A stretch of 64,000 bases of DNA. It comes from an uncultured virus (IMG/VR IMGVR_UViG_3300046792_000272). Its lineage: Duplodnaviria; Heunggongvirae; Uroviricota; Caudoviricetes. Position numbers and translations under genes: made by a program. Shown here piece after piece: positions 33,267-58,493 of this stretch. The stretch lies in the IMG/VR virus record IMGVR_UViG_3300046792_000272; one strand, 5' to 3'. The number at the start of each line of letters is the position of its first letter. Positions within the stretch are counted from its first letter, which is position 1. The notes beneath the pieces are model-generated. The model was given only the letters and a program-made list of their open reading frames with translations, made no database searches and was not told the origin of the DNA.

Positions 33267-33478
33267 CGGTTGGCCTGGCGCTCGAAGGCCCGGTCAGCCG
33301 ACCCGTAGCAGCGGGGGACGCCGCACACCCGGCAGATCGTCATCGTCTCCTCGGGCCAGCGGTATTCCTCGCCGAGGACATCGCCGAGCCGCAGCGTGAT
33401 CCAACCGTGGTCGGGCAGGCGGCAGCCCTCGACAAGCTCGCGGTCGTACCCGCCGCCGAGCCAGAATTTGCGGCTCAT
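33263..33478 (-). CDS. Small Cys/His-rich hypothetical protein
   Basis: ICRVCG; ATGA overlaps. Confidence 0.5.
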   Translation of the reverse strand: MSRKFWLGGGYDRELVEGCRLPDHGWITLRLGDVLGEEYRWPEETMTICRVCGVPRCYGSADRAFERQANR

Positions 33479-33854
33479 TCGGACCTGCCGGGTGGTAGCT
33501 GGCGGGCAAATGGTGGCCGGCCAGCTACCAGTTTGCTACTGGTTCGCCGGTTCCGAGCCTCGGAATCGCCCTTCGGGTGAAGTCGGCGCTGTGCGTCCAG
33601 GGCGGCCTCGATCGCCGCCCTGAAGCCGAATCGGAGGTTTCTGTCCCGAGTTGTCCCGCGTTGGGTCGGAGACTTACTGAGTCGGGGCGATAGGTTTCCA
33701 ACTGCGAGTCGCCCGCTCCCCAGGTCCAGGTCGCGGCGCCTCATCCGATCGTCTCCGCCCTAGCTGTGTCTGCCCAACAAATACCGAAACCTAGGGGCGT
33801 ATACCCGTCGAGGGCCCTCGACATGGCCCTTCGCCCTTCATAGCGTCGGATCGA

Positions 33855-35279
33855 GTGAATCTCGATGGCTACATTCGAGTATCGCGGGTCGGCGGTCGCG
33901 AGGGAGAGCGCTTTATCTCGCCGGAGGATCAGCGGGAACAGATCGATCGCTGGGCGAAGCTGCGCGGAGTCTCCATCGCCAACTGGGAGACCGACCTTGA
34001 TCAGACTGGCCAGGTGTTGAGCCGGCCCGGTCTTGATCGCATCCTCGAGCGGATCCGCACCGGTCAGACCGGCGGCCTGGTCGTCGCCTACATCGATCGC
34101 TTTTCCCGCGCCGGCGTCGCCGATGCACTGAAGCTGGTCGAGCAGATCGTCGAGGACGGGGGCACCTTCGCCGCGGTCGACCTCGGCCTTGACCCGACAA
34201 CTCCCTTCGGCGAGTTCGGCCTGACGATCATGCTTGGCCTCTCGAGGATGCGAGGGCGCCAGATCGGGGACCGCTGGTATGGCTCCCGCAAGATGGCGGT
34301 CGACCGCGGCGTATTCGTCGGCGGCTTTGTGCCGGTCGGGCTGCGCAAGCGGGAGGACGGACGGCTCGAGCCCGATCCGACGGTGCGCCGTGATCTGATC
34401 GCCGAGCTCTTCGGGCGCCGGGCTGGCCGGGAATCCTGGTCGAAACTCGCGGCGTGGCTCTCGGCCGAGCTCGGTGACGAGGTCAGCATCCCGCGTGTGC
34501 GAGCGGTGATCGCCAACCGGGTCTACCTCGGCGAGGTGAACGGCGGCCAGGGGCTCGTCAACCGCTCGGCCCACAAGCCCCTGGTCGATCGCGCTCTGTT
34601 CGAGCAGGCCAACTCCGTCCGCGGTGTCGTGCCGGCGAGAAGCGGCAGGGCTTCCGGTCTGCTGTCGGGCCTTCTGCGCTGCGCCGGCTGCCGCTACGCG
34701 ATGAAGGCCTCGATGAACGCGGGTGCCGGCGGCCTCGAATACAGGTGCAAGGCGAATCGCCGCGAAACGACCGAGCGCTGTCCGTCGCCGTCGTCGGTCT
34801 CGGCGCACCTGATCGACGGGCTGGTGCTCGAGCAGTTCTGGGAGTGGATCCGACGAGCCCGGGCGACCCAGCTCGAGGGCTCGAAGGCGGTCGAGGAAGC
34901 TGAGGGGCAGCTGCTCGGCGCCGAGGCGGAGCTCGATGCTGTCTTGGACACGCGGCTCTCGGAGGCTCTCGGCAGCGATTCCGAGCGCTACCTCGAGCTC
35001 ATCGCCGATCGCCAGGGCCTCGTCGACGCCGCCAAGGGCGATCTCATCGCAGCCCAGCGCGCCCAGGTCGCGCTCCCGGGCAGCGATGTCGCCGATATCT
35101 GGCCGGATCTCGATCTCCATGAGCGTCGTCGTCTCCTTGCCTCAGCCCTTGACTGCGTGTTTGTTCGCCGCGGCCGGGACCTTGCGAGGCGGACGCACCT
35201 TTGCTGGCGCGGTGAGGCGCCGGACCTTCCCCGAAGCGGAGCGCGCTGGACGCCGGTCCCATTCGACTTTCCAGCGTGA
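33855..35279 (+). CDS. Large serine recombinase (integrase)
   Basis: YIRVS catalytic motif, SPEDQ, RPGL, DRFSR, recombinase domain, LSGLLRCAGC Zn ribbon, coiled coil. Confidence 0.95.
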   Translation: MNLDGYIRVSRVGGREGERFISPEDQREQIDRWAKLRGVSIANWETDLDQTGQVLSRPGLDRILERIRTGQTGGLVVAYIDRFSRAGVADALKLVEQIVEDGGTFAAVDLGLDPTTPFGEFGLTIMLGLSRMRGRQIGDRWYGSRKMAVDRGVFVGGFVPVGLRKREDGRLEPDPTVRRDLIAELFGRRAGRESWSKLAAWLSAELGDEVSIPRVRAVIANRVYLGEVNGGQGLVNRSAHKPLVDRALFEQANSVRGVVPARSGRASGLLSGLLRCAGCRYAMKASMNAGAGGLEYRCKANRRETTERCPSPSSVSAHLIDGLVLEQFWEWIRRARATQLEGSKAVEEAEGQLLGAEAELDAVLDTRLSEALGSDSERYLELIADRQGLVDAAKGDLIAAQRAQVALPGSDVADIWPDLDLHERRRLLASALDCVFVRRGRDLARRTHLCWRGEAPDLPRSGARWTPVPFDFPA

Positions 35280-35345
35280 GCCCGTCCGCTCGTACATGAT
35301 CTGAGTGAAGGTGTGCTCGAAGCTCTTGCGGGCCTCGTCGTTCAC
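35142..35345 (-). CDS. Small basic protein overlapping the recombinase 3' end in antisense (candidate RDF)
   Basis: GTGA overlap with 35342..35566; last gene of the early operon before the recombinase. Confidence 0.4.
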   Translation of the reverse strand: MNDEARKSFEHTFTQIMYERTGSRWKVEWDRRPARSASGKVRRLTAPAKVRPPRKVPAAANKHAVKG

Positions 35346-35566
35346 ACCGGCTCCTCGACCGCGATCTCGGCGACGACCAGGTCCCTGACGACCATGCCGC
35401 CGAGCCACATTTCCGGGCCCATCCGAGCCTTCACCAGGTCGTCGAAGATCTTGTCGGCGGTCTCGCGCGAGTAGGTCGACGCGCAGCGATAGCGGCCGTC
35501 CTGGAGCCAGCGGACCTGGAAGGGCATCGGCCCGTGTGGGAAGAGACGGGAGACGCGCTCGCTCAC
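35342..35566 (-). CDS. Hypothetical protein
   Basis: GTGA overlap chain. Confidence 0.55.
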   Translation of the reverse strand: MSERVSRLFPHGPMPFQVRWLQDGRYRCASTYSRETADKIFDDLVKARMGPEMWLGGMVVRDLVVAEIAVEEPV

Positions 35567-35772
35567 TGAGTGAAGCCCTCCAGCATCGGTTCCCGCAGGA
35601 TCGATTCAAGCCGGTCGATCGCATCCGAGGCATCGCAGGACCAGTAGACCTGGGGCGGCTCTATGCGGGCCTGCCTCGCCAGAGCGGCGAGGCGATGGCG
35701 CTGGGCGGGTGTGGCCGGCCAGCGCAAGCGGCGGGTCCGCTCCGCGGCGATGAAGGGGGCGGATCGCTTCAC
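35563..35772 (-). CDS. Hypothetical protein
   Basis: PATPAQ...L..LA motif; overlap chain. Confidence 0.55.
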   Translation of the reverse strand: MKRSAPFIAAERTRRLRWPATPAQRHRLAALARQARIEPPQVYWSCDASDAIDRLESILREPMLEGFTQ

Positions 35773-36569
35773 GCAGTCGCCCCTGCAGGAACGGGAAGGG
35801 CTTCCAACTCGGCAATGAGGCGGTCAGCCTCTCGGTCGAACGCCGCCGACCGCGCCGCCGACCGCGCCGACTCCGCCGCCGACCGCGCCGACTCCGCCGC
35901 CGACCGCGCCGACCGCGCCGCCGACCGCGCCGACTCCGCCGCCGACCGCGCCGACCGCGCCGCCGACCGCGCCGCCGACTCCGCCGCCGACTCCGCCGCC
36001 GACCGCGCCGCCGACCACGCCGACCGCGCCGCCGACTCCGCCGCCGACTCCGCCGCCGACCGCGCCGCCGAAACGTTTTGCTTACCTTCAAGCGCCGCGA
36101 TGACCTTCTCGATGGCGGCGACCACCTCACCTCGAATCGACTCTGGCCACTGACCGCTGAGGGGCAAGCACTCCTCCTTCAGCCGGCAAATGGCGAGGCG
36201 GTCGGCCAAGCCGTCGAAGTCGGCCCCGACCGGGATCGCCTCGGCGAAGCGGCGGGGCCACTCGGCTGCTTTCTCCTTCGGCAGCCCCTCGAAGATCTTG
36301 TCCTCCAGGTGGGCGAGCCAGGTGGGGAGGCCGAACAGCTCGGGGTAGAGCGCATGAAGGTCGTCCGTCGTCCGCTGCTCCACTGTCGCGGCCGAGTGGA
36401 CTGAGCAGCCCACTGCACACCGTTCGTAGTGGCCGTTGGCCTTGCGGCCGTAGGTGCCCTGCACGATCGCGTCGGCTTTCTCGTGGGCGCCGATGTTCGC
36501 CAGGAGCACGTCCTTGGTGGGCTGCTCGCCGTGGTAGGCGCGCAGAGGTTCGGTTGTCGTCTCGGGCAT
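35769..36569 (-). CDS. Phage protein with C-terminal SAAR/SAAE low-complexity repeats
   Basis: CAVGC, LA.LED.IFEGLP motifs plus repeat tract. Confidence 0.75.
   Translation of the reverse strand: MPETTTEPLRAYHGEQPTKDVLLANIGAHEKADAIVQGTYGRKANGHYERCAVGCSVHSAATVEQRTTDDLHALYPELFGLPTWLAHLEDKIFEGLPKEKAAEWPRRFAEAIPVGADFDGLADRLAICRLKEECLPLSGQWPESIRGEVVAAIEKVIAALEGKQNVSAARSAAESAAESAARSAWSAARSAAESAAESAARSAARSARSAAESARSAARSARSAAESARSAAESARSAARSAAFDREADRLIAELEALPVPAGATA
35842..36070. repeat. Coding tandem repeat of 9/12-bp units (gccgaccgc / gccgactcc)
   Basis: Directly visible. Confidence 0.95.
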
Positions 36570-36787
36570 CAGCTCTCCTCGCTGGAATCGTTGTCGTCGT
36601 CCTGGTGTGCGTCGAAGATCTCCTTGGCGCGCCGGAGGTTGACCGCGCAGCCCGCGTGGATCCAGCCGCGCTTCTCATCGCGCGCGATGTAGTCCTCGCC
36701 GGCGACGATCCGCCCCGAGCAGACCTTGCAGCGTCCATTCCGGCGGGCCAGCATTTCCGGGGCTTGGATGAGCTCAGCCACGGTCAC
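36569..36787 (-). CDS. Small Zn-finger protein
   Basis: C..C.G.I..GE......HAGC. Confidence 0.65.
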   Translation of the reverse strand: MTVAELIQAPEMLARRNGRCKVCSGRIVAGEDYIARDEKRGWIHAGCAVNLRRAKEIFDAHQDDDNDSSEES

Positions 36788-37509
36788 GCCCCCTTGCCTC
36801 CGAGACGGCGGTCGCCGCCCTCCATTCGAACCACACGGCAGCGGGCGAGCCGGGACATCAGCGGCTCGCCGAAGCGCTCGCCGATCTCGGAGAGCTTCAG
36901 GTTCGTCGTCACCAGCATCGGGGCGCCAGCCTGGTCGCGGGCATCGATCGCGGAGAAGAGCTGCTCGCGGCCGAACTCGGTCGGCCGGGCCTTGTCGAAG
37001 TCATCGAGGACGACGGGACCGGAGCCGGCGAAGACCCGGACGGCCTCCAGACGGCCCTCGTCGGTGTAGGCGGAGCCGAGCCGGGCCATGGCGCGGGCGA
37101 TCGAGACGTAGGTGCAGCTCCAGCGCTCGAGGCGGGTCCAACAGGCCGCGGCGGCGAGTCGCGTCTTGCCGATGCCAACCTCGCCGGCGAGCATCAGGCC
37201 GCCGGCATCCTCGGTCTTCGCCCAGTCGGTTGCGGCTGCATGGGCAGCCTCCTGGCCGGGCGCCACCGGGAAGTACTCGAGCAGCTCGCCGCGGAGGGGG
37301 CGAGGGAGCTGGCACCTACCGCGCCGCGCGTCGCGGGCCTGGTGGCGCTCGCGCTCGGCCTGATCGGCGTCGGCTCGCTCAGCGCATTCGTCGCACAGCG
37401 CCTTCGCGGCCATCCGCCGCAGCCAGCGGGCGGCGCCGCTGTCGCCATCGGGCACGGGAAGCGTCAGCTCGGTGCCGCAACCGCTGCAGATCGTGGTGAC
37501 CGTGCTCAC
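36784..37509 (-). CDS. DnaC/IstB-like helicase-loader ATPase
   Basis: GEVGIGKT, VLDD, VTTN, MSRL, GGDRR; N-terminal Zn motif. Confidence 0.9.
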   Translation of the reverse strand: MSTVTTICSGCGTELTLPVPDGDSGAARWLRRMAAKALCDECAERADADQAERERHQARDARRGRCQLPRPLRGELLEYFPVAPGQEAAHAAATDWAKTEDAGGLMLAGEVGIGKTRLAAAACWTRLERWSCTYVSIARAMARLGSAYTDEGRLEAVRVFAGSGPVVLDDFDKARPTEFGREQLFSAIDARDQAGAPMLVTTNLKLSEIGERFGEPLMSRLARCRVVRMEGGDRRLGGKGA

Positions 37510-38375
37510 GCGGCCGGCTCCATGACCTCGTCGTAGCGGGCGAACTTCGATCCGCCGCCGCCGGGTGCGTCCCCGTTGCTGGCCTGCATGCAGCGCTCGA
37601 ACTGCGCGGCGCTGCCGTAGATGACCTCTGGCCCGGGGTGACCCGACCACCAGGGCGAGCGGAAGGTGGCGGCGATGATGGCGCGGTGGGCCTCGGCAGA
37701 GAGCCCGGCGTGTTCGCGGATCCGGCCGACGATCGGGGTGAGGTGGGCGCCGACGGTGTAGGTCGTCCGCGCCGCCTGGTTGAAGGCCTCGATGATCGCC
37801 GTCGCGGTCGAGTGCTCGGAATCGGTGACCGGCTTTCGGTTGACCCGGGGACGCGCACTAGTCTGTGTTGACGTATCCCTTGACGTATCCCCTATAGAGA
37901 CCGAGTCCGAATGTTCGGACCCTTTCTGTCCGGATCCTCGGACCCTTTGTTTTCGTGCCTGGTCCGAGCTCTCGGACCCTTTCGATTTGGCATCAGTCCG
38001 AATGTTCGGACCCTTTCTGTCCGGATCCTCGGACCCTTTGTTTTCGTGCCTGGTCCGAGCTCTCGGACCCTTTCTCATCCGCTGTTCAGCCTCGGAAACG
38101 TCGCCGTCGAGGCCCGGGAGTTTCAGCCAACGGAGGCTCGGCTTGCCCCGGCCGCCGCCGCCCTCGAGAATGGCCAGTTGGCCCGTCTTCTCGATCTCGC
38201 GGAGGACTTCGAAGATCGTCGCGCGCTTCATCCGGGTCTTCCTCATCAGCTCCTTGATCCCGGACCAGGCGATCCCATGTTCGTCGGCGCGATTGGCGAG
38301 GGCAAGCATCGTCACCCGCTGGCGCTGGGTGCCCTCGAAGTACTTCCAGACGGCGTTGTAGGCCTCAACGCTCAC
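37506..38375 (-). CDS. Replication initiator (N-terminal HTH, internal iterons)
   Basis: LALANRADE.G.AW.G...L HTH; upstream of the DnaC-like gene. Confidence 0.85.
   Translation of the reverse strand: MSVEAYNAVWKYFEGTQRQRVTMLALANRADEHGIAWSGIKELMRKTRMKRATIFEVLREIEKTGQLAILEGGGGRGKPSLRWLKLPGLDGDVSEAEQRMRKGPRARTRHENKGSEDPDRKGPNIRTDAKSKGSESSDQARKQRVRGSGQKGSEHSDSVSIGDTSRDTSTQTSARPRVNRKPVTDSEHSTATAIIEAFNQAARTTYTVGAHLTPIVGRIREHAGLSAEAHRAIIAATFRSPWWSGHPGPEVIYGSAAQFERCMQASNGDAPGGGGSKFARYDEVMEPAA
37904..38074. repeat. Two 80-bp direct repeats holding six palindromic iterons (probable ori)
   Basis: 37904-37983 equals 37995-38074; unit GTCCG-N-CGGACCCTTT. Confidence 0.85.
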
Positions 38376-38590
38376 GCGGGCGCCTCGGCTTCCTCGATCA
38401 CCGTGTCGATCTCGACGCCCCACTCGACGGCGACCGCCATCGCCTCGTCGAGCTCGGCCTCATGTTCATCGAGCTGCTCATAGGTGAGGTCGGGGTTCTC
38501 GACAGCCCGCGAGACCTTCATCCAGGCCACCACCAGCTTGCCCCGGGCCCAGGCCTTGCGCTCCCGGGAGATCTGGGCCCCGGACTTCAC
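38372..38590 (-). CDS. Hypothetical protein
   Basis: GTGA overlap chain. Confidence 0.6.
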   Translation of the reverse strand: MKSGAQISRERKAWARGKLVVAWMKVSRAVENPDLTYEQLDEHEAELDEAMAVAVEWGVEIDTVIEEAEAPA

Positions 38591-38799
38591 AGCTCGCCCC
38601 CGAGGAGCATCTGGTGTGCGCTGTCGCGGAGGACGCGACGGACCTGGCGGGCGCTCGCGGAGAAGTAGCCGACCCCGCGGGCGAGCGGCCTGATCGGTAT
38701 TCGCCCTCGCTCAGGGGCGCCGGTGACCGTCGCCTTGAAGCGGCGGCCGCGGATGTTGACCTCGACCTGGTCGCCGGTGTGGAGGTCGGCGAGCTTCAC
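38587..38799 (-). CDS. Hypothetical SH3-like protein
   Basis: GTGA overlap chain; GD.VEV motif. Confidence 0.6.
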   Translation of the reverse strand: MKLADLHTGDQVEVNIRGRRFKATVTGAPERGRIPIRPLARGVGYFSASARQVRRVLRDSAHQMLLGGEL

Positions 38800-39074
38800 C
38801 GAGCTGCCCTCCTGGTGTACTCCGGGGGAAGGGCGGCCTCGATCTCCGAAGGGAGGGGGTCGAAGTGCTGGCCGCCGAGGACGTGCAGCGGATGGTCCCG
38901 GTCGGCCAGCGTCGACGTGATCGGGAACTCGCGCTGCTGTGGAGGGAGGCGGTCAGAGCGATGCCGGTGGTCGTGGACCAGACAGGCCACCCCCATCGTG
39001 ATCAGCATGACCAGGTCGATGATCGCCGCGAAGATCAGGAAGACGAGGGCGATGTTGAGGACGGTCGCGAGCAT
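38796..39074 (-). CDS. Membrane protein
   Basis: Hydrophobic N-terminus; TGATG overlap. Confidence 0.55.
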   Translation of the reverse strand: MLATVLNIALVFLIFAAIIDLVMLITMGVACLVHDHRHRSDRLPPQQREFPITSTLADRDHPLHVLGGQHFDPLPSEIEAALPPEYTRRAAR

Positions 39075-39292
39075 CAGGCCGCGGCGGGCTCCGTGTCGTC
39101 GATCGGCCAGATGTCGGTGACCTGATAGCCGAGGAAGCTGGCGATCTTGAACGCGTTGCGGGCCGACATCGGCTCGCCGGCCTCGGCTCGACCCCAGACG
39201 CTGGCGGCGACACCGGCGCCGCGGGCGGCGGCCGCCTTCGAGAGCCCACGGTTCCGGCGCTCCTTGGTCAGGTTGACGGGGGGGGTCGTCAT
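39074..39292 (-). CDS. Cro-like XRE HTH protein
   Basis: R..RGLS...AA...GV.......AE.G; ends in DIWP. Confidence 0.8.
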   Translation of the reverse strand: MTTPPVNLTKERRNRGLSKAAAARGAGVAASVWGRAEAGEPMSARNAFKIASFLGYQVTDIWPIDDTEPAAA

Positions 39293-39552
39293 TCGCTTCC
39301 GCCTCCGTTCAGCGGCCAGATCTCAGTGGGCAGCCTGTCGAAGACTCGGGCGATCGCGAACTGGGTCCGAGGGAGGGGAACGGTGCGGCCCTCCTCGGCG
39401 TCGCGGATCGTCTTGCCGCTAACTCCGGCTTGTATTCCGAGCTCGTTGGGGGAGAGGCCCGCGTTGATGCGAAGCTTGACCAAGGTCAGATTCCGCGGCC
39501 GCGGCCGCCGCGAGCGGATCTTCGAAACGCGGGTGACGGTTGGGGTCGTCAC
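39289..39552 (-). CDS. Cro-like XRE HTH protein
   Basis: LRINAGLSPNELGIQAGVSGKTIRDAEEG; ends in EIWP. Confidence 0.8.
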   Translation of the reverse strand: MTTPTVTRVSKIRSRRPRPRNLTLVKLRINAGLSPNELGIQAGVSGKTIRDAEEGRTVPLPRTQFAIARVFDRLPTEIWPLNGGGSE

Positions 39553-39631
39553 TTCCCGAAACGTAACACAGACTCCCGTTAGATGCAAGCAGTACCCGCT
39601 AGCCCCCAAAATGGGTGTTTATGGTTGCCTC
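39553..39631. promoter_or_regulatory. Divergent cI/cro promoter region
   Basis: Minus strand TTGCAT-17bp-TACGTT, 7 nt before GTG 39552; plus strand TATGGT, 6 nt before GTG 39632. Confidence 0.6.
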
Positions 39632-39946
39632 GTGGACGAGCTGGTGAAGCGCATTCGCGCAGCACGGGCCTTCGCGCAGCTCTCGCAGCCAGGTGTAGCC
39701 GAGCGGCTTGAGATGAGCGATAAGACCTACAAGCTGATCGAGCTCGGGCAGCGCAGGCCGAAGCGGTCAGAGCTTTTGGCGATCGCGGAGATCTGCACCG
39801 TCCCGATGTGGTTCCTCGAGGGCGGCTGGGAGGGCTGGCGCTCTACCGAATCAGGCGAAGGTGGCGAGCCCGGCGACCTCCGCCCGCGGAATCTGATCCC
39901 CCCGGAGGATCAAGGTGGCGCTGCAAATGAAGCCGAGCAAGCCTGA
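39632..39946 (+). CDS. Phage repressor (XRE HTH)
   Basis: RIRAAR....LSQ..VAERL.MS..TY..IE.G.R.P; divergent from the cro genes. Confidence 0.8.
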   Translation: MDELVKRIRAARAFAQLSQPGVAERLEMSDKTYKLIELGQRRPKRSELLAIAEICTVPMWFLEGGWEGWRSTESGEGGEPGDLRPRNLIPPEDQGGAANEAEQA

Positions 39947-40284
39947 GCTCGGAGGGCTCGGGTCCATGGTCCTGGAGGCCACACAGGGCCAGGTAGGCGA
40001 TCACCAGCAGCCGCTCTCGTTTGACCCCGCCGAGCACAGCTACCGCATGCCCCCAGCCTTCCCGGTTCTCCCCTTTTTCGGTTGTTCTTCAGTGGACGAC
40101 ACTCGCCTCCCGATGGATGAGCCAACCCCCTGCCGGATTGGAGCGGTGATCACCTGGGCTAGATCACGGGGCGATCATAGGCCGGGTTTTCGAGCCACTG
40201 GCCAGATGCCCTACAGCCAATTTGGTGCGAGGACTTTCGCCTGTCCGCAAACAGCGAGAATCCAGTCGAGATAGGAGCCGAACA

Positions 40285-40509
40285 TTGAGCCATCGCCAGA
40301 TATTCATCGGAGCATTCGCTGTCCTGGGCCTGCTGTTTATCTGGCCGCCGCTAGCAGCCCTGGTGTTGGCGGTGATGATCGTGGTCGCAGTCGTCACCTG
40401 GCTGACCGATAGCGGCCGGCCATGTCCTCGCTGCGGCGAGAAGGTCCCGACCGGCACCCTCGATTGCGAGCATTGCGGCTTCGATTTTCGGACCATCGGC
40501 GCGGATTAG
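40285..40509 (+). CDS. Two-TM membrane protein with C-terminal double Zn ribbon
   Basis: CPRCGE......CEHCGFDF; AGGAG RBS before TTG. Confidence 0.7.
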   Translation: MSHRQIFIGAFAVLGLLFIWPPLAALVLAVMIVVAVVTWLTDSGRPCPRCGEKVPTGTLDCEHCGFDFRTIGAD

Positions 40510-40686
40510 TGGCCGTGAAAAGCCCCAGTCTCGGAAGGGACTCCGGCGCCCGAGGTCTCAGGTGCATGTCGAGGGCCAGGCATGGCAGCCATCAACCTCA
40601 GGTCGAGGGCTAGCTGGATTTGCGGGAAATCTCGTAATTTGTCACCCCGGACCAGGCGGTTCCGGCTAGCATGATTCGCCACAACG

Positions 40687-40720
40687 CAAAGAGGGAGGAC
40701 CCGAAGGCCCTCCCTCTTTG
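40687..40720. terminator. Intrinsic terminator-like hairpin, possibly bidirectional
   Basis: CAAAGAGGGAGG / CCTCCCTCTTTG perfect arms; TTCG loop on the minus strand. Confidence 0.75.
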
Positions 40721-40729
40721 GAAATTCAT

Positions 40730-40805
40730 GGGGCTATAGGTAACGCCTGGTCCGCAATCGCCCTTCAAGCACCGCGGATGTGGGTTCAATTCCCCACTAG
40801 CTCCA
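40730..40805 (+). ncRNA. tRNA-Ala/tmRNA-like small structured element
   Basis: GGGGCTA/TAGCTCC-A acceptor stem with G3.U70; GTGGG-TTCAATTC-CCCAC T-arm; no normal D or anticodon arms. Confidence 0.6.
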
Positions 40806-40904
40806 TCACCGCTGACTACGTGGGTGTATATACCCCAAATCGGCCGTTTGTTGTGTTACGAGACCCGATCTGGACGAATTTTTAGTATCCGCTCACGCAG
40901 GGTA

Positions 40905-41522
40905 CTAGGCACAATCGCTCGGCAGCAGCCGAGCGATGCCCCATGAGTCGGTCGGGAACCCCCCAGCTGAGAGGCCGAGCGTGCCGGCGCCGGCGCCGGT
41001 GATGTCGATCGTCCGGCCCGTCCAGGGGGCAGGCCCTATATCGGTTTGTCGGAGGACCGCCGAGTGGCCGGCGACCCTGATCCGGAAGTAGGCGCCCAGG
41101 GTGTCGTAGTTGTAGAGGGCGATTCCGGGAAGCGCCGAGCTGATGCCCAGCGCCGTGGTCCCAGCCCCCTCGAGCGGGGGGCCGAAAACCGAGACCCTGC
41201 CGGCGAAGACGGGGCCGCCGCGGCAGTAGAGCTCATGCCGTCGCCGCTTGTAATAGGCGTGGCGATCGACCGCCCAGCTGTGCTTGATCGCGGCGCGATG
41301 GCCGGGACTCGCCGCACAGCGAACGTGACGATGGTGGGCCCTGATGGTCGTGGTCGAGGGTGATCCCCTGCGCCATCGCTCCGGCGCCCAGACCTGGGCC
41401 GCGAACACTGCCGCCTGCTTCGCTTTCACCGGCTGCGCACAGCCGACCGCAGGCGTATTGGGGTGCGCTGGCGCCGGCGAAACGATGGCGGCAGCGACTA
41501 TGGGGGCAACGAGTGCCCGGAT
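40905..41522 (-). CDS. Secreted RlpA/DPBB-like (lytic transglycosylase-like) protein, probable ATC start
   Basis: DIGPAPWTGRTIDIT motif; signal-peptide-like extension only from ATC after AGGAGG. Confidence 0.6.
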   Translation of the reverse strand: MRALVAPIVAAAIVSPAPAHPNTPAVGCAQPVKAKQAAVFAAQVWAPERWRRGSPSTTTIRAHHRHVRCAASPGHRAAIKHSWAVDRHAYYKRRRHELYCRGGPVFAGRVSVFGPPLEGAGTTALGISSALPGIALYNYDTLGAYFRIRVAGHSAVLRQTDIGPAPWTGRTIDITGAGAGTLGLSAGGFPTDSWGIARLLPSDCA

Positions 41523-41601
41523 ATGGACCTCCTGCTAGGGGACGGGACACCCGCACGTAGGACCGGAAACTCAGCCGGTCCCGGGGGTCATCAGGTGAAG
41601 C

Positions 41602-41967
41602 TCAGCGGAGGTTGTGCAACGGGACGGTGCGGAGTTCGTCGAGCGCCAGGTCGTGGGCGGCAGCAGCTCGCCGCTTGGCTCGCTCCGGGCGGTCGGCGCT
41701 GACCACATCGATGCGGGTCAGCTGGTCGCCGTCCTCCCTCAGGACGACATAGCGGGTTGGCAACCGCCTCGAATTTGCCCGCCTGCGCCGCCTGTTGCCG
41801 TTATACGACGGAACGGCCGCCCTCTGTGGCCTCCGCCCCGGGTTGCACTTCTCCCAGTGCCTCTGCTTGTGCTCGTCGCAGCAGAATTTCGCCGTTTTCT
41901 TACGGCCGTCAATATCCTCGCCGCACCAGAGGCAGTGACGGGTGGGGGGCAGGATCTCGGCCAGCAT
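41602..41967 (-). CDS. Zn-finger hypothetical protein
   Basis: CLWCG.......AKFCC..HKQ. Confidence 0.65.
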   Translation of the reverse strand: MLAEILPPTRHCLWCGEDIDGRKKTAKFCCDEHKQRHWEKCNPGRRPQRAAVPSYNGNRRRRRANSRRLPTRYVVLREDGDQLTRIDVVSADRPERAKRRAAAAHDLALDELRTVPLHNLR

Positions 41968-41970
41968 GAG

Positions 41971-42132
41971 CTACACCTGCCACCCTTCATCCCGTGCTCC
42001 CTTACGGGCAGCCTCCTCTTCGCGTTGCCGTTCGGCCTCCTGGGTCCTGGTCGGATCGATAAGCCGTCCGCCCTCGGTGATTTCAAGGAGGGCCGGTCCG
42101 GGCTCCCTGACCGTTGGCTCGGGGCTCTCCAT
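41971..42132 (-). CDS. Small hypothetical protein
   Basis: TGATG overlap. Confidence 0.45.
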   Translation of the reverse strand: MESPEPTVREPGPALLEITEGGRLIDPTRTQEAERQREEEAARKGARDEGWQV

Positions 42133-42308
42133 CAGCGATGGATCGCGTCGACGAACTCCGAGATGGCAAGCGGGCCGAAGGCGAGGACGACAGCCACGGC
42201 GCCGGCGACGACGGTCGGCAGGCCCACCTGGGTGGTGAAGCCGAAGACGGCGAGGCCCAGCGCCGGGCCGGTCAGGGACTCGGTGGGGCGCTTCTTGATC
42301 AGGCTCAT
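42132..42308 (-). CDS. Holin-like two-TM protein
   Basis: AAAGGA RBS, two hydrophobic segments, downstream of the lysin. Confidence 0.65.
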   Translation of the reverse strand: MSLIKKRPTESLTGPALGLAVFGFTTQVGLPTVVAGAVAVVLAFGPLAISEFVDAIHR

Positions 42309-42517
42309 GGGTTCCTTTCGATAGGGCCGTTGACTTCGAGCTCGAAGGCGTGATCGGCGGCCGTCTCCCGGCGGGTGAGCCAGCAGGCGGCATAGGTGAG
42401 GTTCAGCCAGAGATGGCCGAGGTAGCCCATGGGGGCGTAGTGGCACTCGTCCTCGTAGAAGCGCCAGGGCAGGAGACCGAACCAGAGCGCGCAGGCGATG
42501 GCTCGAGCACGAATCAT
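42305..42517 (-). CDS. Hypothetical protein
   Basis: Operon context. Confidence 0.45.
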   Translation of the reverse strand: MIRARAIACALWFGLLPWRFYEDECHYAPMGYLGHLWLNLTYAACWLTRRETAADHAFELEVNGPIERNP

Positions 42518-42727
42518 TCAGGCCGCCCGTCTCTTTCTCGGCGCAGCGCGGGCGTGAGCCATACGCCGGAGCATGGCGGCGCGGTCTCGGTGGCCGTTGT
42601 AGACCTTCTCGCCGGCCAACGCCCTCTCTCCGCGAGCAACCATTGCTCCGGCAATGGCAGCGGGGTCGACTCGATAGGTGCCGTCCCGGACTTCCTGCTT
42701 TATCCGCGCGAGATGGTCGCTGAACAT
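42518..42727 (-). CDS. FlgM-like anti-sigma-28 domain protein
   Basis: LARIKQEVRDGTYRVDPAAIAGAMV matches the FlgM C-terminal pattern (K..I..G.Y.VD...IA..M). Confidence 0.75.
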   Translation of the reverse strand: MFSDHLARIKQEVRDGTYRVDPAAIAGAMVARGERALAGEKVYNGHRDRAAMLRRMAHARAAPRKRRAA

Positions 42728-42731
42728 CGCG

Positions 42732-44327
42732 TCAGCGGGGAGCCTTCACCTGGTCGACCGGCCTTTCGTCCGCCACCGTCGGCGCCGCGTTGATCAGCTG
42801 CTTCCGGGATTCGCCGCCGAGTGGCAGCTTCACCTTCGCCCGCGGAGCTCGCCGGGCCCGGCGCGGCAGCTTCTTCACCCGGAGGTCGACCAGGGCCGAG
42901 CGCCCGCCGACCAGCTTGTCGACGTCGACGTCGCCATTGACGCCGGCCACGGTCGCAGTCGAGGTGTACTGCCAGAGCAGGTCCGTCGACCAGGGCGGGC
43001 TCGGGACCACCGCCTTGCTGACGCCGTAGTCGGCGATCCACAGTCGGTACTTGCCGAGCCAGCTGCAGCTCGAGAAGTAGGTCTGGGCGAAGCTCGGGTA
43101 GGTGTAGACGATCGCCTTGACTCCGAGGTTGCGGCGCACCAGGCGCAGGAAGGAGCCGACGTAGCGACAGGTCGCCTGTGGGTTGAGCTCGCTCGTCTCG
43201 ACGTCGAGGACAGGCGGCAGAAAGCCCTTGCCATAGCCGGCGTGTCCGACCACCTGGGTGAACCAGGCCGCCTCCCGGGCGCCTGTGCGGTCGGCCCTGG
43301 GCCGAAGGTAGTGGTAGACGCAGGGCACCAGGCCCGCCTCGGTGACGGCACGCATCTTCTTGCGGCCGAAGCCGAAGTCGACGTAGTCCTGACCCTCGGA
43401 GGCCTTGACGCAGGCGAAACTGGCGCCGGCGTGGCGGACTGCTCCCCAGTCGATTTCCCCATTGTTGGAAGAGACGTCGATGCCCCAGGCCGGGCCCTTC
43501 GGCTTGTGGTGGTGCCGGTGCTTCTTCTTCGGCTTGTGGTGCTTCGGGTGCTTGACCGCCGGCGGCGCCTTGGCCGTGTGGGGAACATGCTTCGGAGTTG
43601 TCTTGATCGGCTTGGAGAGCGGCCGGCGCAGGCGCTTCCAGACCCGCGGGCTGACGATCCCGTTGACCTTCAAGTACTGCGCGTGCTGGAAGTGTTCGAC
43701 CGCGACCTTGGTCGAGTGGCCGAACTCGCCGTCGACCGTGACGCTCTTGTCGCCGTGGCCACGGAGCAGCTTCTGGACCTTGCGGACGTAGACGCCCTGG
43801 CCGGGGCCGCCGGAATGCAGCCGCAGGATCGGGTCGTGGAGGTTCGTCCCAGGATTGGGGCGGTGAAAGACCGCGTTCCATTTGATGTGCCACCACTCGG
43901 TCGGGGCATCGGACCAGCACTTACACCAGCCGTAGCGCTTCCCGTGAAGGTCGATGTAGCCGCGGGTCGCCTGGCTGACGTCGATCGCCAGGCCGAGGCC
44001 GTGATTGGAGGTCCCTGGGATCGCCGCGTTGCCGCAGCTGCCGAGGGCGCACCAGTATTCGCGGTAGTAGTCCTGGCGAGCCAGGGGTCGGTAGGCCGAG
44101 TCGCAGCCGTTGATCGCCAGCCTCTGGCCGGCGCCGAGCGCCATCGAGTTGAAGGCCGCGGCCGCGTGGTTTTCGAGCTGCCCCTCGAGCGGGGTGCAAT
44201 GGACGCCGGTTGCGATCGGCGACATCGCGCTCGCCGGCGCGTCTCCGTTGGTGAAGGCAGTCGCACTCCGGGCGCCGCCGAGTAGGACTAGAAGCGCGCA
44301 GAGCGCAGCGAGGGTGGTCCGCCGCAT
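42732..44327 (-). CDS. Endolysin: signal peptide + M15/VanY-type peptidase + PG_binding_1 + His/Lys linker + GH25 muramidase
   Basis: SAYR..., PGTSNHGLGLAID, EWWH; VDGEFG..T..AV..FQ; GIDVS, KASEG, LDVE, WQYT, DVDVD. Confidence 0.92.
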   Translation of the reverse strand: MRRTTLAALCALLVLLGGARSATAFTNGDAPASAMSPIATGVHCTPLEGQLENHAAAAFNSMALGAGQRLAINGCDSAYRPLARQDYYREYWCALGSCGNAAIPGTSNHGLGLAIDVSQATRGYIDLHGKRYGWCKCWSDAPTEWWHIKWNAVFHRPNPGTNLHDPILRLHSGGPGQGVYVRKVQKLLRGHGDKSVTVDGEFGHSTKVAVEHFQHAQYLKVNGIVSPRVWKRLRRPLSKPIKTTPKHVPHTAKAPPAVKHPKHHKPKKKHRHHHKPKGPAWGIDVSSNNGEIDWGAVRHAGASFACVKASEGQDYVDFGFGRKKMRAVTEAGLVPCVYHYLRPRADRTGAREAAWFTQVVGHAGYGKGFLPPVLDVETSELNPQATCRYVGSFLRLVRRNLGVKAIVYTYPSFAQTYFSSCSWLGKYRLWIADYGVSKAVVPSPPWSTDLLWQYTSTATVAGVNGDVDVDKLVGGRSALVDLRVKKLPRRARRAPRAKVKLPLGGESRKQLINAAPTVADERPVDQVKAPR

Positions 44328-44373
44328 GGCGGGCCTCCTTTCGGTTAGGGACCGGCAGCTCTGCCGGTCGAGA

Positions 44374-44928
44374 TCAGCAGTCGGGGACTAGGCCGCAGGC
44401 TTTGCCGTGGACGTCTTCGGCGACGCCCTTGACGGCTTCCCCTACCTGGCCGACGGCTTTGCCGACCGGGCCTGGTTCAGTCTTTTCGGGTCCTTTGTGG
44501 CCGGTAGGGCCTTCAGGAGCGGGTTCCGCCGGAGTCGACGGAGTCGGTTCAGGGCCCGCGGGCCCCGCCGGGGTATGCGGCGTGTGCTTGCCATGCCCGC
44601 TGCCATGGTGCCCGCCCTTCGGCGGGCTCGGTTGCTGGCCTCCCTGGTGGGAAGGCTGGAGGGCATCACCCCCCTTTAGGTGCGCCGAGAGCTTCGGCGC
44701 ATCGGCGACCAGGCGCCGGCAGCTGGGAGTTCGCAGGCAGGTGCGGAGGACGTCGATCGGCCGTACGTGCTCGAGCACGACGATGCGGTGCACGATCGAG
44801 CGGGTTTCCCGCTTGACCTCGGCGGAGATGCCAAGGAAGATCAGAAGCGCACCGAGTACGATCGCGCTGACCCGGAAGAGGGTGCGACCAATTCTGGTCT
44901 CGACAAGCCAGCGACCGAAGCTCTTCAC
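44374..44928 (-). CDS. Lysis-region membrane protein with Pro/Gly/His-rich C-terminus
   Basis: GTGA overlap; C-terminal half homologous to 1319..2017. Confidence 0.7.
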   Translation of the reverse strand: MKSFGRWLVETRIGRTLFRVSAIVLGALLIFLGISAEVKRETRSIVHRIVVLEHVRPIDVLRTCLRTPSCRRLVADAPKLSAHLKGGDALQPSHQGGQQPSPPKGGHHGSGHGKHTPHTPAGPAGPEPTPSTPAEPAPEGPTGHKGPEKTEPGPVGKAVGQVGEAVKGVAEDVHGKACGLVPDC

Positions 44929-45209
44929 CCCCGAGTCACCACCAACATGATGATCGTGCCGATCATTCCGGCCACGACCGTGACCATCAAAGTCGCGACG
45001 AGGCGGTAGAGCCCCCCTATACGTTCCTCGATCTTCGTCTCGATCGCCCCCATCCGCCGCTCGAGGTTCGTGTTCAGGTTTTCGGTCTTCTCGTAGAGCT
45101 CGCCGATCTGCCGGCCATGTTCTTGGTTGGTTCGGCTCAACCCGTTGTTGCCATAGGGCCCCCAGAGGCTCGTCGCGATCTGGGTGACGCGGGTCTCGAG
45201 ATCTTCCAC
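44925..45209 (-). CDS. Coiled-coil plus C-terminal TM protein (holin/XhlA-like)
   Basis: AGGAG RBS; architecture; position. Confidence 0.6.
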   Translation of the reverse strand: MEDLETRVTQIATSLWGPYGNNGLSRTNQEHGRQIGELYEKTENLNTNLERRMGAIETKIEERIGGLYRLVATLMVTVVAGMIGTIIMLVVTRG

Positions 45210-45247
45210 CAGGTGCTGGTCTCCTCTCGCGGAATCGGGGGGTCAGG

Positions 45248-48200
45248 TCAGTTGCGCGACTGCATGGCGATCTCGTGGCGGGCCACAATCGCCGTCAGGG
45301 TTTGCTCGGGGCCGTCGACGGTGATGTCGAGCGATTTCGATTCGTCGTCCCAGGTGGTCGCATAGATCAGCCGCGGTTCGTCGGCCGGGTGGTCGAGGAT
45401 TCCGAGGGTTTCCCCGCAGCGCGGTTTCCAGCCCTGGTGCCAGTGCCCGGCGTAATCCTGGATGTAGCCGCCCGAGATCCGATAGGTCCCGGGCCGCTTC
45501 GGACGGTTGTATTCCGCCAGGAAGGCGCGGCCGAACTGTATGGCTTCGGCTTCGGTGCAGGACCAGGGAACCGTGGTATCGGTCCACAGCGCCTCGCCCT
45601 GCTGGTTGGCCGGGTTCGATTCGGATTCGTCCCGAAGTTCAGAGTGTTCGGACGGGTAGAGGATGCGGGACTTGCCGCTGAGCAGGTCGGTGTAGGAGAC
45701 CGTGACCCCGTTGGCGAAGTTTTCGATTGAGTCGCCCTCGAAGCGGACTTCGACACCCGGATCGTCGGTGCGGATCTGCCAGTCATAGGTGGTCAGGTCA
45801 TTCTGTTCGAACTTGAAGGTGCGGTTCTCCCAGACGCCCATTTCCCAGAGCGCCAGTTCTCGGAGCTGCTGCAGGATGTCGTAGCCGAAGGAGGGGTTGT
45901 CGTGCCAGGTGGCCTGCGTGACCGGGAAGGTGTTCGGCTGCCCCCCCCACTTGAGCTTCGGGTAATAGGTGGCGAGGATGTATTCGATAATCTCGGAGAG
46001 GTAGTAGCCCTCTTCCGGTTCGCTGCCGCGGGCGGTCAGGCCGTGCCTACCAATGACGCGAGGGTTCAGCCATCCATGAACCGCTCGAATATCTCCGGTG
46101 GCGACCCCGAGGTATTGGGACTGAACCAACGCGAACTTCCGGCCCGATGTCGTCGCACTCACCGCTTGGTTGCTTGCGGCGGTCTGATCGTGGTCGGTGC
46201 CGGGATCGCTGGAGGTGCTCAGGTCGTTCGAGGACAGGCGGGCGCGGTCTTCCCAGGTCGCATCGACTCCTTCGCCGCCCAGTGGTGAGAAGTCGTAGCG
46301 AAGCGCACCGATGTCCTCCCCGCCCGCGTAGAACCAGGCCTCACCGTTCTCCTTATAGGTGCCATCGAAACGGGCGAAGGTGAACACGATGCCCGGCGCT
46401 TTGGGGCCTTCGGACCGCCATCCCGCGCTCATCTGCCCCTCCGGGCGCGCTCCGCCGGTCAGAAGTTCACCCTGGCGCTGGGTCGATGGCCCTTCCCAGC
46501 CCGCGAGCCGGCGATCGATTATCAATGGGGCGATCTTGCGCGACTTTAGGTAGGTGGCCCAGCCGACCAGCGCGACGGCGATCTGCTGCTGCGGGCTGTT
46601 GGTGCGCGGATTGGAGTGGTGGCGGCCCTCGTAGGCGATCTCGCCATTGCGCCCGACGAAGCGGTGGGTATCGAGGAGGTTGAGGTCCGGGTAGTCCTTG
46701 AATATCGGCCGGTTGAGTGCGTAGCCCCCGGTGCCGAAGCCGTCACCCCTCTGGGTGCCGAAGCTGAGCCCCAGGGGCCGTGTCGCAGCCTTGCTCGAAT
46801 TGCTGGCGCGGCGGAAGTCTCCATTCGGGGTTTCGACCTCGACGTCCAGCTCAAGGGCCGGTTTGCGGACGGGGGTGGGCTTCGGTTCTTCGCCGTAGGG
46901 GTAGACCTTGAGGCCATCGGCGAGAGCCCTCGCGGGCGGGTCGACGTAGAAGGAGGACGCGAACCCTTCCTTGGCGGCTTTCTGGGCCGCTTCGGAGCTC
47001 TCGATCGGCCAGTCCAGTCGGCCTTCTCCCTGCGGGATGTTCCAGTTGAACCAGACCACCGCCTTGACGGCGGGCATGTTGGTCTGCAGGCTGGTCCCTA
47101 GGAGGTCGGTGATCCAGGTGGACTTCGTGCCGCCGATCTCCGACGCTGCCGTCTCGCAGATGATGAGCGGCTTCGACGGGGCGATTTCCTGAGCGCGTTC
47201 GTAGCTCGGCTTGAACAGCGGCGTCGCAGCTCGCCAGCCGAATTTCTTCAACGGGTTTTCGCCCGAATAGCCATCCAGCCCTACCCAGTCGACATAGGCA
47301 TCGCCCGGGTAGTAGCGCTCGAAGTCGGTTACCCCCCCGAGCACGTTGGGGCACCAGACCCAGGTGACGTTCTGGGCGGTGGGCGCGACCTTGGAATGCA
47401 GGTAGCGCCAGGCTTCGACGTAGTTCGACTGGCCGGCCCATGGCCAGGAGGCGGTGTTCATCTCCCACCACGGCCGCAAGAAGATTGGGTGCTTGGAGGC
47501 CGAGGCGGCGGCGGCCCATGCTGCGATTTCGACGTCGTATTGGCCTTCCAGCGTTTTCGTCAGGACGCCTTCCGGTCCCCCGATCGACTTCAGCGGAATG
47601 CAGCCCCGAGCATGAACCGCATCGGTGGCGCCGACCCCGAAGCCATCCCAGGTCAGCCAGGGGTCCGAGTAGGAGACGATCCCAGCGGCGCGCCCGGCGT
47701 GTTCCTCGAATTTGTTCTGAGTGGCGGCGAGGTAGGGCGCGTCCGCTTGCCCGATCGAGTAGACGTCGCCGTCCATGATCGCCCCCCAGTAAGCGCGGGT
47801 CGGGGACCAGGTGGGCGGCACTGGATCGTTGACTCCGACCCAGAGGTTCGAGGTGGTGCCGGTGCTGTCGTTGATCGCGAAGTCGTCCAGGTAGACGATG
47901 TTGGCCTGCGAGTTGATATTCCCGAGCTGGACCGCTTTGACGCCGAGGTTGCGGAAGTTCATCGACTGTTCGGTGGCGACCGTTTCCCCGTCGATTTTGG
48001 CCACGAAGGTGCCGTTCCCCGCCCCCGGGATCAGGAGCATGACCTCGATCACATACCAGCGTTCGGCTTCGAGGTTCTTGGTGCCGGTCGGATGGGTGGA
48101 GGTAACCGCGTTCCAGAATTCCAGTTTCCCCGCAGAGGTCGAGGCGATTTCCAGCACGGTGCCGGTGTTGTCCTTCAACTGGCAGAGGGACTGTGTGGCG

Positions 48201-48409
48201 CCGGGAAAGGCGGAGAGGCGGAGGGCGAAGCGGTAGAAGTAGGTCGTCCCGAGCGCCGGGGTGATTGCATAGGTGACGGTATTGGCGCCGCTGGCGGCGC
48301 ATTTCGCGCAGGCCCCGCTGCGGGCGTGGGCTACATCTTCGGTGACCGAGCCCGCGATCGTGGCACCCGAGATGGGCCACACGTTGAACTTCTCCGTGGC
48401 GATACGCAA
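45248..48409 (-). CDS. Tail tip protein: ConA-like domain + GH26 + Tal-like minor tail domain
   Basis: TTG after GGAGGAG; RPWWEMN, YPGDAYVDWVGLDGY, IICETA. Confidence 0.8.
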   Translation of the reverse strand: MRIATEKFNVWPISGATIAGSVTEDVAHARSGACAKCAASGANTVTYAITPALGTTYFYRFALRLSAFPGATQSLCQLKDNTGTVLEIASTSAGKLEFWNAVTSTHPTGTKNLEAERWYVIEVMLLIPGAGNGTFVAKIDGETVATEQSMNFRNLGVKAVQLGNINSQANIVYLDDFAINDSTGTTSNLWVGVNDPVPPTWSPTRAYWGAIMDGDVYSIGQADAPYLAATQNKFEEHAGRAAGIVSYSDPWLTWDGFGVGATDAVHARGCIPLKSIGGPEGVLTKTLEGQYDVEIAAWAAAASASKHPIFLRPWWEMNTASWPWAGQSNYVEAWRYLHSKVAPTAQNVTWVWCPNVLGGVTDFERYYPGDAYVDWVGLDGYSGENPLKKFGWRAATPLFKPSYERAQEIAPSKPLIICETAASEIGGTKSTWITDLLGTSLQTNMPAVKAVVWFNWNIPQGEGRLDWPIESSEAAQKAAKEGFASSFYVDPPARALADGLKVYPYGEEPKPTPVRKPALELDVEVETPNGDFRRASNSSKAATRPLGLSFGTQRGDGFGTGGYALNRPIFKDYPDLNLLDTHRFVGRNGEIAYEGRHHSNPRTNSPQQQIAVALVGWATYLKSRKIAPLIIDRRLAGWEGPSTQRQGELLTGGARPEGQMSAGWRSEGPKAPGIVFTFARFDGTYKENGEAWFYAGGEDIGALRYDFSPLGGEGVDATWEDRARLSSNDLSTSSDPGTDHDQTAASNQAVSATTSGRKFALVQSQYLGVATGDIRAVHGWLNPRVIGRHGLTARGSEPEEGYYLSEIIEYILATYYPKLKWGGQPNTFPVTQATWHDNPSFGYDILQQLRELALWEMGVWENRTFKFEQNDLTTYDWQIRTDDPGVEVRFEGDSIENFANGVTVSYTDLLSGKSRILYPSEHSELRDESESNPANQQGEALWTDTTVPWSCTEAEAIQFGRAFLAEYNRPKRPGTYRISGGYIQDYAGHWHQGWKPRCGETLGILDHPADEPRLIYATTWDDESKSLDITVDGPEQTLTAIVARHEIAMQSRN

Positions 48410-58487: not shown

Positions 58488-58493
58488 GGATGG

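Follow-up and report, generated by a model that had tools for sequence, protein, structure and literature searches.

An anticodon-less, alanine-type tRNA-like gene on the lysogeny strand of a temperate soil phage

The stretch of DNA analysed here, the uncultured virus record IMGVR_UViG_3300046792_000272 of IMG/VR (64,000 nucleotides (nt); hereafter the window), carries at positions 40730..40805 of the plus strand a 76-nt gene which resembles tRNA-Ala, ends at the discriminator A and is devoid of an anticodon. We propose, at a probability of roughly 0.45, that this element is a genuine, functional alanine-type tRNA mimic of the kind found in Mycobacterium phage DS6A, and that it was derived from a tRNA-Ala gene. 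As a whole, the element is not a product of chance, as is evident from the stability of its fold relative to shuffled sequences, from its scores with the Rfam models for transfer-messenger RNA (tmRNA) and tRNA, and from ends that are identical to those of a real tRNA-Ala(GGC). Since a 7-bp acceptor stem with the G3.U70 pair and A73 is present together with a T arm, the parts that were kept are those read by tRNA-handling enzymes. In addition, 35 positions at the ends are identical to the tRNA while the core has been replaced and the length of a tRNA has been retained, an uneven pattern that is unlike uniform decay.

The element had been noticed in a preliminary description that was made from the sequence alone, and its letters and coordinates were found to be exact. 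Similarly, the 7-bp acceptor stem with G3.U70, the discriminator A, the T arm, the D region of 13 nt and the 6-bp helix were all confirmed from the sequence. The parts are as follows.

40730..40736, plus strand: 5' strand of the acceptor stem, GGGGCUA; G3 of the G3.U70 pair at 40732; 7/7 positions pair with 40798-40804
40737..40749, plus strand: analogue of the D region, 13 nt, UAGGUAACGCCUG; may form a mini-hairpin of 5 bp closed by 3 nt (RNAfold)
40750..40779, plus strand: stub helix GUCCGC/GCGGAU of 6 bp with an 18-nt loop; strands at 40750-40755 and 40774-40779
40780..40797, plus strand: T arm GUGGG-UUCAAUUC-CCCAC; 5-bp stem, with an insertion in the T loop according to the cmscan alignment
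40798..40805, plus strand: 3' strand of the acceptor stem, UAGCUCC, and discriminator A; U70 at 40802, A at 40805

The third pair of the acceptor stem is a G.U pair, the canonical G3.U70, and the discriminator A lies next to the stem. The letters that follow it are UCA, and CCA is not encoded by the element. The stub helix takes the place of both the anticodon arm and the variable loop and directly abuts the T stem. Between the strands of the stub there is just the 18-nt loop, and thus neither an anticodon arm nor a tag reading frame is present. In the predicted fold, a 7-nt anticodon loop on a 5-bp stem is missing, and the fold is not the cloverleaf of a functional tRNA-Ala. Folding of the whole molecule using RNAfold yielded -29.6 kcal/mol (z -2.38), and 4 of 200 shuffled sequences were equally stable.

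The origin of this frame is indicated by its ends. A pattern covering the T arm and the 3' strand of the element (a 23-mer in which the extra C of the T loop was optional) had one match among 185,579 species genomes, and this match was the tRNA-Ala(GGC) gene of an Acidimicrobiales metagenome-assembled genome (MAG; JBBSHM010000016.1). The element is identical to this gene at 10/10 positions of the 5' end and, apart from the one extra C, at 25/25 positions of the 3' end, the latter comprising the T arm, the acceptor strand and the discriminator. The 40-nt core cannot be aligned with the tRNA, and the similarity stops at the gene's end. The lengths are nearly equal, with 76 nt for the element and 74 nt for the tRNA-Ala(GGC) as called by ARAGORN, and CCA is encoded in neither of the two. 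They differ in that three parts of the tRNA are missing from the element, namely a D arm of normal form, the anticodon arm (GGC) and the variable loop. A tmRNA was identified in 56 of the 61 Acidimicrobiia genomes searched, and each of the 20 tmRNAs that were inspected has a 5' end of the form GGGGGUG..GGyUUCGAC and a 3' end of the form GGAC..CACCUCCA. As the ends of the element equal those of tRNA-Ala(GGC) and differ from those of the Acidimicrobiia tmRNAs, its frame is that of a tRNA-Ala and not that of a tmRNA. A comparison with ssrA and tRNA-Ala ends of the host had been proposed in the preliminary description; for the Acidimicrobiia, which may not include the host, it came out in favour of tRNA-Ala(GGC) at both ends and against the tmRNA. 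By eye, the D region of the element fits six of the nine positions of the Acidimicrobiia motif GGyUUCGAC. Marks specific to tmRNA are weak in the element, which likewise shows no clear preference for the tmRNA model, and descent from a tmRNA gene is not indicated, a conclusion that is not final because the tmRNAs compared are those of Acidimicrobiia and may not be those of the host.

A BLAST search of the element against 401 Acidimicrobiia genomes returned short matches in five genomes, four of them to the T arm and 3' end; the fifth is a 23-nt stretch of the core with a chance-level E-value. One Acidimicrobiia genome (G109) harbors two matches of 27-29 nt to the T arm and 3' end of the element (C69:1155-1183 and C9:2573-2599). 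One of these extends 6 nt beyond the end of the RNA and may be a duplicate of a tRNA-Ala 3' end that stems from an integrated element.

Both covariance models recognize the element. The Rfam tmRNA model gave 22.3 bits, with an E-value of 5.9e-7 in a search of 801 nt, which was run with laxer filters than the search of the whole window at E <= 0.01, and an E-value of 7.5e-9 in the 43-kb phage record. This model matches both ends of the element, and 29 nt stand in for 320 internal positions of the model. The Rfam tRNA model gave 23.1 bits (E 4e-4 in the 43-kb phage record). The gathering scores of Rfam are 47 bits for tmRNA and 29 bits for tRNA. The following scores were obtained for the element, for that of DS6A and for further anticodon-less elements of similar size, hereafter minis, which were identified in IMG/VR (L007-L010, see below).

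Window element: tmRNA 22.3 bits, tRNA 23.1 bits, difference -0.8
DS6A: tmRNA 43.2 bits, tRNA no hit, difference at least +43
L008: tmRNA 48.1 bits, tRNA 14.7 bits, difference +33
L009: tmRNA 54.8 bits, tRNA 26.0 bits, difference +29
L010: tmRNA 55.6 bits, tRNA 27.9 bits, difference +28
L007b: tmRNA 28.3 bits, tRNA 20.1 bits, difference +8
L007a: tmRNA 30.1 bits, tRNA 28.9 bits, difference +1 (ambiguous, as are L007b and the window element)

The element is clearly related to tRNA, and the tmRNA and tRNA models tie. The model search that had been suggested along with the preliminary description was thus positive for both families, with both scores below threshold and no decision between the two. 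How such scores are to be read is illustrated by ordinary tRNA-Ala genes: when the tRNA model did not compete, the Rfam tmRNA model gave tRNA-Ala(CGC) and tRNA-Ala(GGC) genes 42.5 and 32 bits (control genes from the Acidimicrobiales MAG G002, L042 1501-1574 and L043 1503-1576). A match to the tmRNA model alone hence proves little, and tRNA-sized tmRNA matches need a control with the tRNA model, a trap to be avoided when mini-tmRNAs are called.

The closest precedent is Mycobacterium phage DS6A, which is listed as having a 'TLD only' (tRNA-like domain only) tmRNA by Hudson et al. 2014 (PMC4131195, citing Mao et al. 2009), a designation that is repeated by Nawrocki et al. 2025 (PMC11915505). Both elements are phage-borne RNAs of about 80 nt, and the G3.U70 pair within an acceptor stem of 7 bp, the discriminator A, the T arm and a short GG-containing 5' region are common to the two; in both, a stub hairpin replaces the anticodon arm and the message, and CCA is not encoded. 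We located the DS6A element at positions 28478-28560 of JN698994, directly after gp30-33. These genes, which are not annotated as such in that record, are presumably the lysis genes of DS6A; if so, both elements are placed just past the lysis genes of a temperate actinophage. In contrast to the window element, that of DS6A has retained GGUCGAC, the signature of tmRNA, together with a T loop of 7 nt, whereas the window element has an 8-nt T loop, ends of the tRNA-Ala type and a position on the strand opposite the late genes. Outside the common tRNA-like frame the two cannot be aligned. The layout of a tmRNA tRNA-like domain, which the preliminary description had assigned to the element, is thus indeed that of the DS6A 'TLD-only' RNA; the assignment holds less well for the sequence, in which tmRNA marks are weak and the ends are those of tRNA-Ala(GGC).

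Elements of this architecture recur in other phages. When IMG/VR was scanned with a narrow pattern, 17 stretches were obtained, namely the phage itself, eight ordinary-looking genes of the tRNA-Ala type (judged by eye and not by ARAGORN) and eight loci with anticodon-less minis of 67-82 nt. In seven of these eight loci tmRNA is the best Rfam family (eight hits with 28.3-55.6 bits, four of them above the gathering score), one locus, L007, carrying two minis in tandem (L007a and L007b); the mini of L012 has no Rfam match at E <= 0.01. A second pattern scan of IMG/VR added the mini L072, which is not called by ARAGORN. In total, ten further anticodon-less elements reside in nine IMG/VR contigs (L004, L007 with two, L008, L009, L010/L011, L012, L016 and L072). 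Common to all minis are an acceptor stem with G3.U70, a GG-containing 5' region of 9-13 nt or a mini-hairpin, and a stub helix, followed by a linker of 0-5 nt, the T arm and the discriminator A. The stub-helix architecture of L007a, L007b, L004, L012 and L072 is the same as that of the window element, and L007a, L007b and L072 also share with it the acceptor stem GGGGCUA/UAGCUCC and, in their 5' regions, the motif AGGU; the L007 phage, with 66% G+C, is further similar to the window phage in base composition. The IMG/VR minis differ from the window element in having 7-nt T loops and other genomic contexts, and most of them lie on the strand of their neighbours. The G+C content of the contigs ranges from 35 to 66%, and the neighbouring genes include anti-restriction-like, DNA-repair, Mom-like and anti-repressor genes. 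In a MAFFT alignment of the minis only the acceptor stem and the T arm could be aligned; as these parts also occur in tRNA-Ala, a covariance model of the minis would not discriminate between the two. The tandem minis of L007 (1417-1567, minus strand; IMG/VR 3300043493_000066, 50536-50683) are about 10 nt apart and lie beside a Mom-like gene, in a complete phage genome of 57.7 kb with terminal repeats and 66% G+C.

Outside phages, tmRNAs without a coding sequence (CDS) are described for jakobid mitochondria (Jacob et al. 2004) and, as forms of about 65 bp, for Mallomonadaceae plastids (PMC11915505). Like the window element, these have a tRNA-like domain but no reading frame for a tag; by their description in the same source they are set apart, being cellular or organellar, derived from tmRNA and co-occurring with SmpB. 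A functional study of phage TLD-only RNAs was not found in the literature searched. AcrIIIA1 (PMC11662646) and CoCoNuT (PMC10542128), which were also considered, proved not to be relevant to phage-encoded minis.

The element is carried by a temperate, myovirus-type soil phage of about 43 kb, of which window positions 1-43057 represent one full unit. The IMG/VR record G001 (43,051 bp) corresponds to window positions 25173-44476 (99.5%) joined to 1-25166 (99.99%), and its ends fall between a small-terminase-like open reading frame (ORF) and an HNH gene. Positions 43058-44673 repeat 1-1636, which include the endolysin (89% over 1.6 kb and 98% over the first 300 nt), and positions 44674-64000 hold a different structural module of the siphovirus type, which has nothing but the endolysin end in common with the first phage. 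The window thus joins two phages with a common lysis-to-early region, either as mosaics joined during assembly or as a real tandem. The element is internal to this common region and, in two assemblies, to the phage; as it lies 3.7 kb from the point where the two structural modules diverge, an artefact of the junction was ruled out.

Nearly all genes of the window are on the minus strand. In the direction of this strand one encounters terminase, portal, capsid, sheath, tube, tape measure, baseplate, endolysin and three small ORFs, which end at 40905, followed by the element in antisense orientation. Beyond it lie a zinc-ribbon membrane ORF, a CI-like repressor, Cro-like genes, a replication initiator and a DnaC-like loader, and then a serine integrase, a sigma factor, a methyltransferase, a helicase, tRNA-Met and HNH. 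CI, the integrase and the zinc-ribbon ORF are, like the element, on the plus strand, and the slot of the element lies between the late/lysis operon and the CI operon. The relevant features of this region are the following.

33855..35279, plus strand: large serine integrase (Pfam Resolvase and Zn_ribbon_recom; PHROG 95), the only integrase found
39326..39946, plus strand: CI-like repressor with a helix-turn-helix (Pfam HTH_31; PHROG 2328, transcriptional repressor)
40222..40509, plus strand: small membrane protein with a C-terminal zinc ribbon (Pfam UPF0547, 31.8 bits; hydrophobic stretch, CxxC...CxxC)
40687..40720, no strand assigned: palindromic hairpin with 14/15 pairs and a CGAA loop, situated between an A-run and a T-run, 9 nt ahead of the element
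40905..41429, minus strand: final ORF of the late operon on the lysis side, running towards the element; relatives with 40-61% identity, no family hit
42732..44327, minus strand: endolysin, VanY-like with PG_binding_1 and GH25 (domain searches)

The zinc-ribbon membrane ORF is the last ORF of the plus strand before the element, and nothing on this strand beyond the element is coding. We read the hairpin at 40687-40720 as a putative terminator that serves both the CI operon and the late operon, which converge here; a terminator scan, which demands a longer T run, did not call it, and it gave spurious microRNA-hairpin hits in Rfam on both strands.

Further observations in the early region concern repeats and a putative regulator. 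Two exact direct repeats of 80 nt (37904-37983 and 37995-38074), noted as 91 nt apart and each containing repeated TCGGACCCTTTC-like units, resemble the iterons of an origin and sit inside the replication-initiator ORF (37506-38423, minus strand). A dense array of 9/12/21-nt repeats (35778-36103; 21 copies in register) lies inside the ORF at 35769-36569 (minus strand), which has only weak matches to DUF982 and to tail proteins. The minus-strand gene at 29815-31227 encodes a protein of 470 amino acids (aa) with sigma-70 regions 2 and 4, and may be a phage sigma factor for middle or late transcription.

With respect to conservation, a blastn search with positions 40400-41200 against 50,697 phage records had no match, and the best tblastn matches of TerL and of the endolysin had at most 38% identity, which leaves the phage without a cultured relative. 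A search of IMG/VR for an exact 26-mer found the same phage only. For the converging ORF at 40905-41429, IMG/VR holds one relative (L024), which shares only the C-terminal part of the ORF, and metagenome contigs hold relatives at 13 loci. At L031 the matching domain belongs to an NlpC/P60 protein of 1025 aa, and most of the 13 metagenome loci are thus not true syntenic relatives. A pattern search for the endolysin in genome contigs gave 82 matches, none of which was confirmed. We also compared contigs of the runs X2-X5, among which X2 alone provided informative cover of the element: it is unchanged there, with no variant letters within. A variant in run X2 has position 40077 joined to 40628, corresponding to a 550-bp deletion of 40078-40627 by which the zinc-ribbon ORF is lost and the sequence leading into the hairpin and the element is kept. 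The slot hence varies between co-occurring strains and is a variable cargo space.

Several observations weigh against a functional RNA of the DS6A kind. The T loop, UUCAAUUC, has 8 nt instead of the canonical 7, or else is a 7-nt loop with a bulged C, and in this it is unlike all ten other minis and DS6A, whose T loops have 7 nt; the extra C is the same in the window, in G001 and in one contig of run X2 and is, therefore, not a slip of assembly. When acceptor stem and T arm were held constant and the 43-nt core was shuffled 1000 times with its dinucleotides preserved, 15% of the shuffled cores folded equally well (z -1.0), so that the internal helices, stub and mini-hairpin, are not above chance. 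The element stays below both gathering scores and is, by its tmRNA and tRNA scores, the weakest member seen. In the window, ARAGORN called just the tRNA-Met at 26398-26473 (minus strand) and not the element, and the same tRNA-Met gene was the sole result of Rfam at gathering thresholds and again at E <= 0.01, where the element was lost by the stricter filters. Its D region reads GGUAACGCC and GGAU precedes the T stem, where the Acidimicrobiia tmRNAs have GGyUUCGAC and GGAC, and its acceptor stem and T loop differ from those of all 20 of these tmRNAs. A tRNA- or tmRNA-like hit was absent from all 14 loci where a relative of the ORF at 40905-41429 occurs (the 13 metagenome loci at E <= 0.1, and L024), and in L028, the only locus that is syntenic on both sides, the slot holds an unrelated ORF of 222 aa and no element. 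The element lies just downstream of the terminator-like hairpin, and a promoter scan of 39900-41500 found no promoter-like site; by eye, TAGCAT at 40667-40672 is a -10-like hexamer. The window copy is a marginal, weak and unconserved representative of a kind that is already known from DS6A.

Part of this evidence can also be taken to speak for a remodelled or decayed pseudogene, that is, a tRNA-Ala(GGC) gene, once carried by the phage or captured from its host, which lost its D and anticodon arms by an internal rearrangement, gained an extra C in the T loop and has no function. The ends identical to the Acidimicrobiales tRNA-Ala(GGC) and the good tRNA-Met gene carried by the same phage are in line with such a relic, as are the scores below threshold in both Rfam models, the missing ARAGORN call, the 8-nt T loop, a core that folds at the level of shuffled sequences, the absence from 14/14 loci with a relative of the neighbouring ORF and the lack of a promoter-like site in the scan. 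However, decay would not spare 35 end positions and yet replace the core, so that a single recent event has to be assumed; moreover, the overall length of a tRNA is kept, and the architecture with a mini-hairpin, a stub abutting the T arm and no variable loop recurs in at least ten other phage elements. We therefore regard the relic as somewhat unlikely, but as an explanation to be taken seriously, and in this respect the decayed tRNA-Ala envisaged in the preliminary description is a live rival, of which the proposed use as an attachment (att) site found no support. In the latter scenario, the element would be a remnant of an attP core that overlaps the 3' end of a tRNA-Ala or ssrA gene. Its last 25 nt are indeed the same as those of a tRNA-Ala(GGC) from a bacterium, and many actinophages with tyrosine integrases keep int-attP in the slot after the lysis genes. 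The attP of such phages typically has the 3' half of a tRNA in common with the host (PMC10865867). Against this, the acceptor stem has its 5' strand as well, perfectly paired (7/7), and both ends had rightly been noted in the preliminary description, which set the element apart from an att remnant that keeps the 3' end alone; a rebuilt tRNA would be left defective by the extra C; the sole integrase is a serine recombinase located 5.4 kb away, with no tyrosine integrase in the ORFs scanned; and the similarity to the tRNA locus ends at the gene's end, with the element being internal to the phage and not at a junction. An att remnant is thus largely refuted and hardly tenable.

The position of the element at the end of an operon might alternatively point to a processing signal, similar to plant mitochondrial t-elements, tRNA-like structures that have been proposed as cleavage signals for RNase Z and RNase P (PMC1920247). 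In this scenario, a cut by RNase P and/or RNase Z would set the 3' end of the CI-operon transcript, which would be protected by the hairpin, and a small RNA would be a by-product. The element is located 9 nt past the strong hairpin at the end of the plus-strand operon, and over its full length it has a weak likeness to mascRNA (Rfam RF01684, 17.9 bits, E 0.92). mascRNA is a tRNA-like 3'-end signal that is processed by RNase P. As with t-elements and mascRNA, a tRNA-shaped, non-decoding structure at a transcript end would be open to cutting by enzymes that act on tRNA ends. These, however, need no alanine identity marks such as the G3.U70 pair, cleavage of the element is hypothetical and the mascRNA score is at chance level; furthermore, the hairpin alone could end the transcript, and nothing coding follows downstream on the plus strand. 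We consider such a signal improbable. Still less probable is a role as decoy or sponge directed at a defence system or toxin of the host that acts at the acceptor end of tRNAs, by cutting or modifying the 3' end or by acetylating the charged amino acid, and from which the translation of the phage or lysogen would be protected. The acceptor and T-arm half is the only part of the tRNA that is kept, the accessory slot lies beside genes expressed by the prophage, and some other minis are found near anti-restriction-like or anti-repressor genes; on the other hand, no defence or counter-defence gene is linked to the element, and the idea is wholly inferential. Anticodon nucleases are impossible as a target, and the decoy for tRNA-cutting nucleases considered in the preliminary description is, for enzymes of this type, unlikely because there is no anticodon loop.

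If the element is a functional alanine-type tRNA mimic, it would be transcribed with the CI operon, or by read-through from it, and its 5' end might be generated by RNase P and its 3' end by trimming. As the gene encodes UCA, CCA would have to be added by the CCA-adding enzyme of the host, and the RNA could then be charged by alanyl-tRNA synthetase (AlaRS) through the G3.U70 pair. Since such an RNA cannot decode, it might compete for proteins, such as SmpB, EF-Tu and AlaRS, to which tRNA-Ala and tmRNA are bound through their acceptor/T-arm half. Titration of SmpB, by which trans-translation of the host would be damped, is the published guess for DS6A-type RNAs (cf. PMC4131195); by analogy it may apply here as well, but as the specific role of the element we regard it as rather unlikely.

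Anticodon-less alanine-type mimics of phages are documented in one cultured phage only, DS6A. The element adds a copy which is plainly built on a tRNA-Ala frame and which its temperate phage carries on the lysogeny strand, and it is best used as a data point in a census of the class and not as a model system. It might be speculated, as a quite unlikely but consequential extension, that phages have repeatedly turned tRNA-Ala genes, and not tmRNA genes, into anticodon-less alanine acceptors, and that the element is expressed by the prophage and damps ribosome rescue, or soaks up a toxin directed at the acceptor end, in lysogens, thereby affecting the fitness of the lysogen or excluding other phages. 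If this is true, the 'TLD-only' RNAs would represent a convergent class with a role in lysogeny, and not degenerate tmRNAs.

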